Source: Patescibacteria group bacterium
Lineage (GTDB): Bacteria > Patescibacteriota > Patescibacteriia > Patescibacteriales > UBA12465
Direction of reading: 5' to 3'
Assembly (NCBI GenBank): GCA_041665845.1
Contig: JBAYIC010000008.1
Coordinates: 1,335-65,334, forward strand
Length of the DNA: 64,000 bases
Positions 8,725 through 14,728 of the stretch are shown here, in pieces (the first letter of the stretch is position 1; each line of letters opens with the position of its first letter). Below the pieces are notes generated by a model. It saw only the letters and a program-made list of their open reading frames with translations. It made no database searches and was not told where the DNA came from. The position numbers and the translations under genes are program-made.

Positions 8725-8808
8725 GCCGCGGTGGCGGAATTGGTAGACGCGCACGACTCAAACTCGTGTGGGGGAAACTTCATGAGGGTTCGATTCCCTC
8801 TCGCGGCA
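8725..8808 (+). tRNA. tRNA-Leu (anticodon CAA), CCA not encoded
   Basis: Acceptor GCCGCGG/TCGCGGC with discriminator A. D-arm GCGGAATTGGTAGACGC. Anticodon arm CACGA-CTCAAAC-TCGTG. Long variable arm. T-arm GAGGG-TTCGATT-CCCTC. Confidence 0.9.
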
Positions 8809-8815
8809 CAAAAAA

Positions 8816-8838
8816 AGACCAGGTTAATGGTCTTTTTT
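8816..8838 (+). terminator. rho-independent terminator after tRNA-Leu
   Basis: AGACCA-ggttaa-TGGTCT followed by TTTTTT. Confidence 0.7.
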
Positions 8839-8862
8839 GTTAGTCTAGAAGTTTTATTTTGT

Positions 8863-8891
8863 ACAAAAAATCTCCCATTGGGAGATTTTTC
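8863..8891. terminator. bidirectional rho-independent terminator
   Basis: Perfect 8-bp palindrome AATCTCCC-att-GGGAGATT, flanked by an A-run upstream and a T-run downstream. It can stop both convergent transcripts. Confidence 0.7.
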
Positions 8892-8979
8892 TGGTCTCAA
8901 GATGACCCTCGAACCGAATTTGACATTTGTATAAACATTATATGCTAAAAATTATTATTGGTCAAGAAATTTCCGGATG

Positions 8980-9048
8980 TGGACCCGCGGGGAATTGAAC
9001 CCCGGAAACCAAATGTCAAATTCGATTCCGAGGACCGCCTCCGGGCCC
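8980..9048 (-). ncRNA. tRNA-like 69-nt cloverleaf, non-canonical (possible degenerate or atypical tRNA); identity unresolved
   Basis: Minus-sense GGGCCCG GAGGCGGTCCTC GGAATCGAATTTGACATTTGGTTTC CGGGGTTCAATTCCCCG CGGGTCC A. It has a 7-bp acceptor with a G3:U pair and discriminator A, plus a good T-arm (CGGGG-TTCAATT-CCCCG). The D region folds only as a 4-bp/4-nt-loop hairpin starting at position 8. The anticodon arm is ambiguous (possible loop TTTGACA). The closing helix can extend to 12 bp (8975-9053). Confidence 0.4.
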
Positions 9049-9096
9049 ACATCATGACGAATTATAGCAAAGGATAAATAAACTAAATCTAAAAAG

Positions 9097-9450
9097 TTAC
9101 GCCTTCTTAAACCTAACCGTAAAAATCGGTTCATACTCGACTTTATTTTCATCAACTAATTTTACCAGCTCTCCGCTGACAAATTGGGTTAAGGCTAAAT
9201 CACTAAGCAATTGATTATCGCCGGCAATATTTAATTTAATTCCTTCGAGCTTATCAAACTCTTCTTTAAAATCAGCTTTAACTGAAGCCTCAATTTGTTT
9301 CTTTTTTATTTTTAAGTCATCAAGCTCTTGGACCACCTTTTGATAATCACCGCTATTACTTAAAGCATCGCGAAACATAGATTTGAGTTCGCGTTGTTCT
9401 TTTTTCTTATCTTGGATACGTTTAAAAACTGCGGGTAATTCTTGGGCCAT
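9097..9450 (-). CDS. hypothetical coiled-coil protein
   Basis: 117 aa, charged and heptad-like (KKKEQRELKSMF..., DDLKIKKKQIEASVKADFKEEFDKLEG). The tRNA-like element lies 48 nt downstream on the same strand. Confidence 0.6.
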   Translation of the reverse strand: MAQELPAVFKRIQDKKKEQRELKSMFRDALSNSGDYQKVVQELDDLKIKKKQIEASVKADFKEEFDKLEGIKLNIAGDNQLLSDLALTQFVSGELVKLVDENKVEYEPIFTVRFKKA

Positions 9451-9490: not shown

Positions 9491-10597
9491 TCACTTTATT
9501 ATCCCGCCGCCCAGCACTCTTTCTTTATCATAGAAAACCACGCTTTGGCCAGAAGTAATTGCCCTTTGTGGTTTATTAAATTCTACTAAATACTCTTGCC
9601 CCTTCTTCACAGAAACTAAACATTTAACCGCTTTATGGCCATACCTTATTACCGCTTCGCATTTCAAGAGTTTTTTTGGAGCACTACCGCTTAACCAATT
9701 AACTTTTTTCGCAATTAAATTATTTTTATATAAGACTTCTCCATTCCATTCTTTAACAACGTATAAAATATTATTTTTATAATCCAACCGCGCCGCGTAA
9801 TACGGTCCGGTCCCACCAATTTCTATTCCTCTTCTTTGACCGATAGTATAAAGCGGTAGACCTTGATGAGTACCAATCTCTTTTTTTGTTTCTAGTAATT
9901 TAATCGGACCGGGCGTAAGCGTTAAATATTTTTTTAAGAAATTATTGTGTGGTCCACTTAAAAAGCAAATATCTTGGCTCTCCGCCTTGGATTCAACCTG
10001 TAATTTATACTTAGCCGCTAATTTTCTTACTTGCGGCTTCACATATCCGCCAAGAGGAAATAATAAATGTTTTAATTCTTCCTGAGAAAAAGTATACAAG
10101 AAATAAGACTGATCTTTTAATTTATCTTTTGCTTTAGCAAGCTGATAACTGCGACCAACTTTCTGAATTTTTAAATAATGGCCAGTTGCAACATAATCAT
10201 AACCCAGACGAAGCGCGTATTTAATCAAGCGCCCGATTTTTATTTGTTTATTGCAAACTACACAAGGATTAGGCGTCCGACCAGCGGCATATTCACTTAG
10301 AAAATTATCAACGACCGCTTTTTTAAAGGGCGCCGAAAAATCAAAAGTATATAAAGGAATGCCAACTTTAGCGGCGACCTTTTTTGCATCCATCATCGAT
10401 TCCAAAGAACAACAACGATTTTCCGCCTTTTCGCCAACCGACTCATCTTTCCAGAAATGCAAAAAAATTCCCGCTACTTCATATCCTTGGTTTTTTAGAA
10501 GCTGGGCGGCAACGGACGAATCAACTCCGCCCGACATAGCGACTAAAACTTTAGGCCGCTTTTTTTTATTATTTAAATTTTTACTTATTTTCTTCAT
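9491..10597 (-). CDS. mnmA: tRNA-specific 2-thiouridylase MnmA
   Basis: 368 aa. PP-loop VAMSGGVDSSVAA, catalytic Cys context TPNPCVVCN, C-terminal SGQSVVFYD. Confidence 0.92.
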   Translation of the reverse strand: MKKISKNLNNKKKRPKVLVAMSGGVDSSVAAQLLKNQGYEVAGIFLHFWKDESVGEKAENRCCSLESMMDAKKVAAKVGIPLYTFDFSAPFKKAVVDNFLSEYAAGRTPNPCVVCNKQIKIGRLIKYALRLGYDYVATGHYLKIQKVGRSYQLAKAKDKLKDQSYFLYTFSQEELKHLLFPLGGYVKPQVRKLAAKYKLQVESKAESQDICFLSGPHNNFLKKYLTLTPGPIKLLETKKEIGTHQGLPLYTIGQRRGIEIGGTGPYYAARLDYKNNILYVVKEWNGEVLYKNNLIAKKVNWLSGSAPKKLLKCEAVIRYGHKAVKCLVSVKKGQEYLVEFNKPQRAITSGQSVVFYDKERVLGGGIIK

Positions 10598-14311: not shown

Positions 14312-14728
14312 TGTTATCAGGGCAGCTGTAAGCCGGATTCTGTTTTAAGCGATCATTTATCTAGGCTTATTATTACTAATAAGCTCAAGCGAGCCACTTT
14401 TCTTTCCTTCTAACCTAAGTCAAAATGAAAGTTTGCTCTTGCTTCTGATAGGGTTTACCACGCTATCTCCGTCACCGGAGAGCGAAACCGGTAGCCTCTT
14501 GCGAGACACCCAGCTCCTTTTCACCTTTTTTCCTGTTAAAAATTGCAGGATTAGTATTGTCTCTGTGGCACTTTCCCTTGACCAAATCGACTTTAACCGA
14601 AATGGCCCGGTGGGTATTACCCACTATCATTAAACCTCAAAAATATTGAGATTTTAGCGAAGTCCGGACTTTCCTCCCCTCTTAAGCTAAACCTAAGAAG
14701 AGTAATCGCCCGCTCACCCTGATAACTC
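14312..14728 (-). ncRNA. rnpB: RNase P RNA, bacterial type A (ends approximate)
   Basis: Minus-sense GAGGGGAGGAAAGTCCGGACTTCGC (the universal GAGGAAAGUCCGG, plus strand ~14665-14690) and ACAGAATCCGGCTTACAGCTGCC near the 3' end (plus strand ~14322-14345). P1 pairing is GTTATCAGGG (5') with CCCTGATAAC (3'). Internal GTGCCACAGAGACAA matches the conserved J11/12 region. Confidence 0.9.

Follow-up and report, generated by a model that had tools for sequence, protein, structure and literature searches.

The question raised by this locus is why a tRNA-like cloverleaf should be followed, a short way downstream, by an inverted copy of its own core. Both lie on the minus strand of a stretch of 64,000 nucleotides (nt) of a Patescibacteria group bacterium (the whole of which is called the window below; GC content ~35%), in the gap between a gene for a conserved hypothetical protein of 117 amino acids (aa) and a tRNA-Leu(CAA) gene. 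The first-pass annotation of the window had offered three explanations: an atypical or decayed tRNA-Ala, a processing or stability module at the 3′ end of an mRNA, or a structural switch. Comparison with related genomes leads to a different answer, namely that the element, judged by its conservation and covariation, is a real, selected and previously undescribed small-RNA cassette that consists of a tRNA-shaped RNA (RNA1) and a co-evolving antisense partner (RNA2). The best reading of the locus is a self-contained cassette of ~230 bp with two predicted promoters (P1 and P2) and one terminator.

Folding of RNA1 by minimum free energy (MFE; ViennaRNA) gives exactly the 69-nt four-way junction that had been drawn by hand, at -42.4 kcal/mol (z = -4.7), a stability that 0 of 200 shuffles match. 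The RNA, read on the minus strand as GAUGU-GGGCCCG-GAGGCGGUCCUC-GGAAUCGAAUUUGACAUUUGGUUUC-CGGGGUUCAAUUCCCCG-CGGGUCC-ACAUC-C, is made up of a 12-bp closing stem and three hairpins, with zero linker nt at the junction. The closing stem, already suspected as an extension of the acceptor helix, joins a 5-bp extension to a 7-bp 'acceptor' (GGGCCCG/CGGGTCC) whose third pair is G:U and whose discriminator base is A (A73); these features and the T arm are present as described, in sequence and fold alike, and the small D-like hairpin and the missing 8–9 linker both appear in the MFE structure. The remaining hairpin, a long variable arm at the anticodon position, had been drawn with a 5-nt loop, and in the window copy it indeed has 10 bp and the loop UUGAC. 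The other way of drawing that loop, with anticodon UGA, is echoed in a marginal tRNA-Ser(tga) call that ARAGORN makes when its threshold is lowered to 80% (-ps80).

The inverted copy also stood up to analysis. Reported at first as 8907–8929, it contains 19 nt at 95% (8911–8929 against 9010–9028, the latter inside the long arm) that form the best non-palindromic inverted repeat within 200 nt anywhere in the window, and the complementarity grows to ~32 nt when G:U pairs and one bulge are allowed. The annotation had likewise recognized the terminator (a hairpin and U-run) downstream of this copy; what it overlooked is P2, a predicted promoter between the two copies. The downstream copy is best described as the beginning of a separate predicted transcription unit with its own terminator, and its sequence would occupy the extreme 5′ end of that second transcript, RNA2, because P2 has the footprint of a used promoter (see below). 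The proposed switch is therefore better described as a two-RNA sense/antisense pair. RNA2 has no open reading frame (ORF), and its content is an antisense image of RNA1 plus the terminator; overall it is an inverted copy of RNA1 nt ~8–44, old and partly degenerated. Its own fold has an unpaired 5′ tail (the first 15 nt), a small hairpin and the terminator, and in every variant complementarity to RNA1 sets in 0–3 nt from the predicted P2 start, much as the complementarity of IS10 RNA-IN and RNA-OUT starts at a 5′ end.

In order to follow the element in relatives, 80 orthologous loci (given L numbers here) were obtained via the 117-aa protein, and a covariance model was built from the first four copies. 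The model finds the element in three of the 80 (L002–L004) and no second copy in the window, and its scores in relatives are 95–107 bits. More relatives came from exact-protein look-ups of the closest 117-aa variants, for a total of ~20 contigs with the cassette, or 9–10 distinct variants, all of them Falkowbacteria-like. Conservation of each segment was taken as the mean pairwise identity across variants (nine variants for P1), with the third-codon positions of the 117-aa gene as a neutral yardstick; these are only 58–69% identical across the carrier genomes, so the genomes are not near-identical. The RNA1 scaffold (closing stem, D stem and T arm) is 97% identical, and the terminator, with consensus AUCUCCC-NNN-GGGAGAUUUUUU, 98%. 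The long arm is 70% identical, yet it is paired throughout, with double changes in three pairs. In P1 the sequence TGnTATAAT is 95% identical and stands at a fixed distance of 7 nt from GATGT, those 7 nt themselves being 58% identical; a good -35 is absent. In P2 the -35 (TTGACY) and -10 (TATAAT) hexamers are 94% and 93% identical, and the spacer is 40% identical and always 17 nt long. Conserved hexamers flanking a fixed-length, near-random spacer are, at the level of sequence, the classical footprint of a promoter in use. The terminator motif occurs once in the window and, among 124 loci, only in the 21 with the cassette.

Within RNA1 the changes are few and patterned. The D stem is invariant save for one G:C to G:U change, and its loop is YGGU in eight of nine variants and UGAC in L105; the T stem is invariant and its loop has a single A/G change at the purine-57 position. 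The loop of the long arm ranges from 5 to 9 nt, with U36, C39 and A40 invariant, and carries a YUNR motif in all variants (UUGA, CUGA, UUAG or UUAA).

Both the cloverleaf and the RNA1:RNA2 complementarity covary. Across the nine distinct RNA1 sequences 96.4% of cells of the cloverleaf are paired, compared with at most 56% when the register is slid, and double changes are seen in four pairs, among them acceptor pair 6:67 (C:G to U:A) and arm pair 27:47 (A:U to G:C, on three occasions). The nine variants give the same cloverleaf in RNAalifold, with an arm of 8 bp. The RNA1:RNA2 helix, in which RNA1 nt 26–44 of the long arm, the segment that recognizes RNA2, pair with the first 19 paired nt of RNA2, could be compared in eight distinct variants. 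Compensatory double changes occur in 14 of its 19 pairs and 96.7% of cells are paired; register slides reach no more than 46%, and 0 of 500 shuffles attain the observed values. The D hairpin (RNA1 nt 13–24) is complementary to RNA2 as well, through conserved G:U pairs with the G on the RNA1 side. The tolerated non-Watson-Crick cells comprise ~32 G:U and 5 A:C (cells, not independent events), and this G:U bias on one strand favors a constraint at the RNA level on the minus strand. Calculated energies are partner-specific: the arm duplex has -34 to -36 kcal/mol for cognate and -9.5 to -29 kcal/mol for non-cognate combinations, and dimerization gains -1.6, -13.3 and -9.3 kcal/mol for cognate pairs and 0 for every non-cognate combination.

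Since full pairing opens the arm and the D hairpin, the cloverleaf and the full duplex are mutually exclusive. By this comparison of variants, both the cloverleaf and the RNA1:RNA2 complementarity are shown to be under selection, and the long duplex that the first-pass annotation had imagined as a competitor of the cloverleaf is real. Its structural switch survives in part: the exclusive folds covary and a cis form is possible in a read-through transcript, while P2 and the terminator make a two-RNA pair the better description. The coordinates of the cassette and its surroundings are collected in Table 1.

Table 1. Features of the RNA1/RNA2 cassette and flanking genes (window coordinates)
Feature	Position	Strand	Description or evidence
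P1, extended -10 promoter TGCTATAAT (predicted)	9061–9069	minus	Exactly 7 nt before first base of closing stem (GATGT)
RNA1, 79-nt tRNA-shaped RNA	8975–9053	minus	MFE fold, RNAalifold consensus, covariance-model matches; cloverleaf core 8980–9048
D-like hairpin GAGG-CGGU-CCUC	9030–9041	minus	4 bp/4 nt; RNA1 nt 13–24
Long variable arm	9005–9029	minus	RNA1 nt 25–49; 8–10 bp; YUNR loop motif (UUGA here)
T arm CGGGG-UUCAAUU-CCCCG	8988–9004	minus	G53:C61-type closing pair; loop UUCRAUU
P2, sigma-70-type promoter TTGACC-17-TATAAT (predicted)	8937–8965	minus	11/12 consensus matches
RNA2, ~66-nt RNA, predicted ends	8865–8930	minus	Antisense image of RNA1 nt 13–44, then terminator
RNA2 core, pairing with RNA1 arm and 3′ strand of D stem	8907–8929	minus	Covariation
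Cassette terminator AAAAAUCUCCC-AAU-GGGAGAUUUUUU	8865–8890	minus	Intrinsic, hairpin + U-run; 98% identity across variants
mnmA	9491–10597	minus	Upstream of 117-aa gene
117-aa conserved hypothetical gene	9097–9450	minus	Followed by the cassette
Bidirectional terminator hairpin AAAAAAGACC-N-GGTCTTTTTTT	8812–8845		A and T runs at flanks
tRNA-Leu(CAA)	8725–8809	convergent with element	ARAGORN
parA, parB, dnaE		convergent with element	Beyond tRNA-Leu, in this order
RNase P RNA, bacterial class A	14313–14722	minus	Rfam, 177.8 bits

RNA2 comes in two subtypes, found in L004, L107 and L110 on the one hand and in the window, L003, L097, L099 and L105 on the other. One subtype is marked by an insertion of 6 nt (GAUAUU) and an AAGGAUYAYYUU hairpin, the other by GAGG(G)UCAUCUUGAGACC, and both still pair with the invariant D hairpin via G:U. 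A search of the window for further targets with a 15-mer at up to three mismatches gave 7 matches where 4.4 are expected, none of them convincing.

How might such a pair work? We lean, with moderate confidence, towards a self-contained sense/antisense pair in which RNA1 is a stable tRNA mimic and RNA2 serves solely to antagonize it. P1 would start a very stable tRNA-shaped RNA1 in which the 'top half' (acceptor and T arm) and the small D hairpin are held invariant, and in which the arm at the anticodon position would be a freely evolving hairpin that displays the YUNR loop. P2 would start RNA2, and the loop and upper arm of RNA1 find their complement in its unstructured 5′ tail. RNA2 would nucleate on the arm loop and unzip the lower half of the tRNA shape, and pairing would then zip up over 23 bp or more (as many as ~32 bp if G:U pairs are counted), so that the arm and the D hairpin open and the tRNA shape is lost; the resulting duplex would be long enough for RNase III. 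RNA1 would be the effector, its conserved top half mimicking a tRNA for some cellular factor. The near-consensus P2, next to an extended -10 P1 with no good -35, suggests an excess of RNA2.

RNA2 is read as the antagonist because its content is antisense only, because the arm evolves neutrally, because the arm carries a YUNR loop and because the complementarity begins at the 5′ end of RNA2. The arm changes at about the neutral rate provided that the partners match, and this indicates that no third-party target constrains it; together with the lack of any other domain in RNA2, it points to a closed two-partner system. Both promoters have conserved hexamers and free spacers, and RNA2 persists in a locus that has lost RNA1 (L132, below), transcription in all these cases being predicted from sequence. 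We infer the transcript ends, the direction of control, the involvement of an RNase and a binding partner for RNA1. U-turn (YUNR) motifs are known to accelerate antisense recognition in hok/sok and in plasmid systems (PMC6562991).

Several points weigh against the antagonist model. The smallest gain on dimerization, merely -1.6 kcal/mol, belongs to the window's own pair. In L107 and L110 the upper intramolecular arm is weaker, and the 'arm' could be mainly a target site and not a hairpin, while the loss of the D-loop GG in L105 weakens the case for a tRNA-like elbow. The cassette comes from one narrow clade and its scaffold, including G3:U70, hardly varies, so that conservation is silent on which scaffold features matter. 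Transcript starts, ends and abundance are predictions, and the cellular partner of RNA1 is a postulate. Finally, complementarity by itself fits pairing in trans and in cis alike.

That last point is the basis of the alternative which survives best, a purely cis-acting switch in which a single P1-to-terminator transcript toggles between the cloverleaf and a long hairpin, with P2 unused or incidental. No terminator lies between RNA1 and RNA2, so P1 transcripts would contain both, and the MFE structure of the full-length P1-to-terminator RNA is the long hairpin, 1–10 kcal/mol below the cloverleaf-constrained fold; the covariation fits this as well as it fits pairing in trans. Such a switch does not sit well, however, with the conserved P2 hexamers around their fixed-length, poorly conserved spacer, or with a complementarity that begins within 3 nt of the predicted P2 start in all variants. 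It also does not sit well with L132 (1700–1860), in which a deletion has spared only a mutated 3′ remnant of RNA1 (CCGTGGGTCCATATCCGG), immediately behind an inserted radical-SAM gene, and in which P2, RNA2 and the cassette terminator are intact, leaving an 'orphan' RNA2. We consider a purely cis switch unlikely; under the antagonist model the same pairing can also form in cis, in read-through precursors, because P1 transcripts meet no terminator before RNA2.

A bolder form of the antagonist model is that the cassette is an RNA-only addiction or toxin-antitoxin (TA)-like module, with the stable tRNA mimic as toxin and an excess of labile antisense RNA2, made from the near-consensus P2, that unfolds it. 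The mimic, which has all of the AlaRS acceptor identity elements and a canonical T arm, would then interfere with RNase P, the CCA-adding enzyme, AlaRS, EF-Tu or the ribosome. The orphan RNA2 of L132, the fact that no locus with RNA1 and without RNA2 was seen among the loci examined, the stability of RNA1, the patchy spread and the hot-spot location are what the logic of such a module predicts. We put this forward as a hypothesis, and on present evidence an unlikely one.

It is also conceivable that the selected unit is DNA. The 19–23-bp repeats flank an 80-bp segment with P2 and could be the arms of an invertible promoter, the ends of a small transposon or a pair of operators; inverted repeats that bracket a promoter are indeed the architecture of invertons, the cassette is accessory and lies in a variable hot spot, and co-evolving DNA sites would also show compensatory changes in both arms. 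On the other side, the ~20 contigs, which come from many samples, share one orientation, and the neighboring genes include no recombinase or transposase; 80 bp is moreover very short for recombinase looping. On one strand the mismatches favor G:U, the complementarity with the D hairpin exists only via G:U, and conservation extends independently to the cloverleaf, a structure without a role at the DNA level. We regard a DNA-level element as very unlikely.

The first-pass suggestion of a 3′-end module of the 117-aa mRNA, similar to mascRNA, where a cut by RNase P would define the mRNA 3′ end, has some initial appeal. The element lies 48 nt past the stop codon of that gene with no terminator in between (this spacing and the convergence of tRNA-Leu had both been noted and are correct), and the best score in a permissive local Rfam search is for the mascRNA model (31.9 bits, E = 7e-5). 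That score is under the gathering threshold of 42.5, however, and the element has its own conserved predicted promoter, 7 nt upstream. Upstream neighbors vary: the element is intact behind a convergent 307-aa gene in L088, where P1 is retained despite the different neighbor, and behind a radical-SAM gene in L099. The 117-aa gene is highly conserved, and yet 76 of 80 orthologous loci are without the element. Such a module is highly improbable.

The remaining first-pass suggestion was a tRNA-Ala. A working atypical tRNA-Ala, a tmRNA-like alanine acceptor or a tRNA pseudogene, with the inverted copy as an incidental neighbor, would account for the canonical T arm and for G1:C72, G2:C71, G3:U70 and A73, which we take to be the known AlaRS acceptor identity set; these elements are invariant in nine variants, but in a stem nearly without variation in this clade, so that their conservation is uninformative. 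In the permissive local search the tmRNA model aligns both ends of RNA1 (21.2 bits, threshold 47; only the acceptor strands and T arm are aligned), and there is the tRNA-Ser(tga) call at the 80% threshold. At standard settings the programs are silent: ARAGORN calls only tRNA-Leu(CAA) and leaves RNA1 uncalled in default and -ps modes, and Rfam at gathering thresholds has only tRNA-Leu and RNase P RNA in the window. A decoding role is contradicted by an 'anticodon' stem of 8–10 bp, a loop of 5–9 nt and a central triplet that is UGA, UAG or UAA among close relatives while the acceptor stays unchanged; the 8–9 linker and variable loop of canonical tRNAs are missing (the junction has no linkers) and the D loop is 4 nt. 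Decay is excluded by a scaffold that is 97% identical against a near-saturated neutral background, since synonymous sites are 58–69% identical, and the inverted copy is not incidental because it covaries with RNA1. The fixed P1 distance further implies that the predicted transcript begins flush with the 12-bp stem, which buries the acceptor end, although RNase P processing and AlaRS charging of RNA1 would be possible. We give a tRNA-Ala in any of these forms only a slight chance.

tmRNA itself was rejected on its score, on the lack of a call by ARAGORN -m, on a length of 79 nt and on the lack of a tag ORF and of a pseudoknot, and relatives do not preserve the likeness of GGAAUCGA to tmRNA GGAUUCGAC. 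We judge a small, possibly leaderless protein gene with its start at the AUG within GAUGUGG to be extremely unlikely: an ORF from that AUG is open through RNA1 in all variants and public callers annotate the module with a 118-aa ORF in a different frame, but stop and length vary (33, 36 or 68 codons), variable positions show no third-codon bias, and the variation tracks base pairing. Public gene calls of that 118-aa ORF, which has no Pfam match, run across the RNA1/RNA2 cassette in L098 (2117–2473) and L101–L103, and a similar mechanical ORF of 66 aa lies at 8955–9155 of the window; both are probably spurious, as their lengths are not conserved.

As found, the cassette is confined to one subclade of uncultivated Falkowbacteria, where it lies next to tRNA-Leu in a hot spot of variation. 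A single-sequence nhmmer search recovered only three close relatives, and a T-loop regular expression run over the 80 orthologous loci gave nothing beyond those three. A scan of metagenomes for a D-arm plus T-loop pattern returned 12 stretches, one of them genuine (L088); a pattern scan of IMG/VR gave 0 matches and BLASTN against phage and plasmid collections no match. Diverged members of the family may exist, because the patterns used on the large collections demanded a near-exact D-arm sequence. In the other orthologous loci the 117-aa gene either borders directly on a terminator and tRNA-Leu or has unrelated cargo behind it. Several metagenome-assembled genome records with this Patescibacteria-type locus (L002, L007–L010, L035 and others) are titled 'uncultured Gammaproteobacteria', 'Saccharimonadales' or 'Bacillota', labels that are probably wrong.

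Between the 117-aa gene and tRNA-Leu(CAA) lies a hot spot for insertions (L001, L003:3127–4116, L088:676–1599, L097, L099:2165–2845, L114–L119). Its cargo differs by relative and includes opposite-strand proteins of 307–343 aa without Pfam match, a LAGLIDADG_3 endonuclease, a 947-aa beta-helix protein and a radical-SAM protein, the last with a weak match to prokaryotic viperin (pVip) in PADLOC (39.6 bits). The cassette travels as a unit relative to these accessory genes. A functional tie to the 307–343-aa genes or to the radical-SAM gene was rejected, as they are missing in the window and in L004 and their order with respect to the cassette varies. In L007 (2855–2960), ~5 tandem copies of AAAAACACGGGGCT and then AAAAAAACAGGAAT-like units directly follow the 117-aa gene, in the position that the cassette has in the window.

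The 117-aa gene itself is always found between mnmA and tRNA-Leu/parAB. Its protein is coiled-coil-like, has neither a Pfam nor a PADLOC match, and is strongly conserved across Patescibacteria (209 matches; 35 invariant columns among 22 sequences); the names 'SMC interacting' and 'Zn-ribbon' that some sources give it are unsupported. No protein of the neighboring genes, by Pfam and PADLOC, links to the cassette. The hairpin between the cassette terminator and tRNA-Leu is a shared bidirectional terminator that is also present in relatives without the cassette. RNase P RNA, part of the enzyme expected to process a tRNA-like RNA, is encoded 5 kb from the element.

The architecture of the cassette has parallels in several known systems. 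As in tisB/istR-1, zorO/orzO, hok/sok and IS10 RNA-IN/RNA-OUT, there are two adjacent promoters and 19–32 nt of complementarity in the form of a DNA inverted repeat, a YUNR-loop hairpin meets a single-stranded 5′ tail, the partners co-evolve, and the unit is small, accessory and patchy. It differs from them in having no protein (toxin ORF or transposase), in the tRNA-shaped junction of one partner, and in a tandem arrangement of the two genes that also allows co-transcription; as a type I TA system it lacks any ORF of conserved length or frame for a toxic peptide, and as an inverton it lacks a second orientation in the ~20 contigs and a recombinase among its neighbors. ColE1 RNA I, a regulator of plasmid replication, is a cloverleaf-like RNA that recognizes its partner by loops and lies antisense to the target gene, which it overlaps. 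With the type VIII TA systems (SdsR/RyeA; CreT/CreA) the cassette shares the possibility that both components are RNA, a suspected effector on the translation or tRNA machinery, and the loss of the effector with the antagonist kept (L132), which is the permitted direction of decay. It differs in an antagonist that pairs antisense and an effector that is a tRNA mimic, and toxicity here is supposed; CreA acts through Cascade on a promoter and not by antisense pairing, and CreT sequesters tRNAs via codons and is no tRNA mimic (PMC8501985, PMC10097628).

Among RNAs of similar shape, mascRNA/MEN-beta (RF01684) is likewise a minimal cloverleaf in which the D and anticodon arms are short and the T arm is canonical, but it is eukaryotic and cut from the 3′ end of a long noncoding RNA, whereas RNA1 has its own predicted promoter, a 12-bp stem and an antisense partner. 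tmRNA (RF00023) shares G3:U70, A73, a GGGUUCRAUUCCC T arm and a long helix at the anticodon position; RNA1 is without the mRNA-like domain, tag ORF and pseudoknots, and has a true D hairpin. YrlA was considered since a published M. smegmatis YrlA primer contains GGTGATGTGGGCG, and it too is a bacterial RNA that mimics a tRNA without decoding, keeps conserved T and D arms and is closed by a long stem from the RNA ends. It was rejected on topology, motif and rsr linkage. YrlA is permuted (T, acceptor stem-loop, D), so that its ends emerge at the anticodon side; it contains GNCGAAN0-1G, and rsr (TROVE) is encoded on the same strand no more than ~4 kb away (PMC4201824). RNA1 has the order D, arm, T, no rsr neighbor and no conserved GNCGAAN0-1G; no TROVE domain is listed for any neighbor with Pfam matches on record, and AUCGAAU in the window is not conserved in relatives. 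Engineered 'tRNA scaffold' RNAs, which are synthetic, display a functional hairpin at the anticodon position of a tRNA body, and RNA1 presents its long arm in the same place.

The cassette thus brings together, in a combination that is new, two known kinds of element: bacterial tRNA mimics and antisense pairs encoded in one locus. A full-text literature search found no paper on tRNA-like RNAs in Patescibacteria/Candidate Phyla Radiation, nor any tRNA-like RNA paired with a type VIII TA system. Non-decoding tRNA mimics are, to our knowledge, rare in bacteria, tmRNA and YrlA being the known examples, and we know of none with a dedicated antisense RNA; for the Candidate Phyla Radiation almost no regulatory RNAs have, as far as we know, been described. 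The comparative evidence is unusually clean, with 14 compensatory pairs among only eight variants, and it has a practical side in that public records now carry a spurious 118-aa ORF over the cassette. If the antagonist model is true, the cassette would be a minimal, protein-free regulatory or addiction module, and one that could be reprogrammed, as its specificity arm is modular. Should the toxin reading hold, it would be the first TA pair with a tRNA-mimic toxin, and a natural counterpart of the engineered 'tRNA scaffold'. The antagonist model, if correct, would further suggest that bacteria of very small genome size have a tRNA-handling factor worth titrating.

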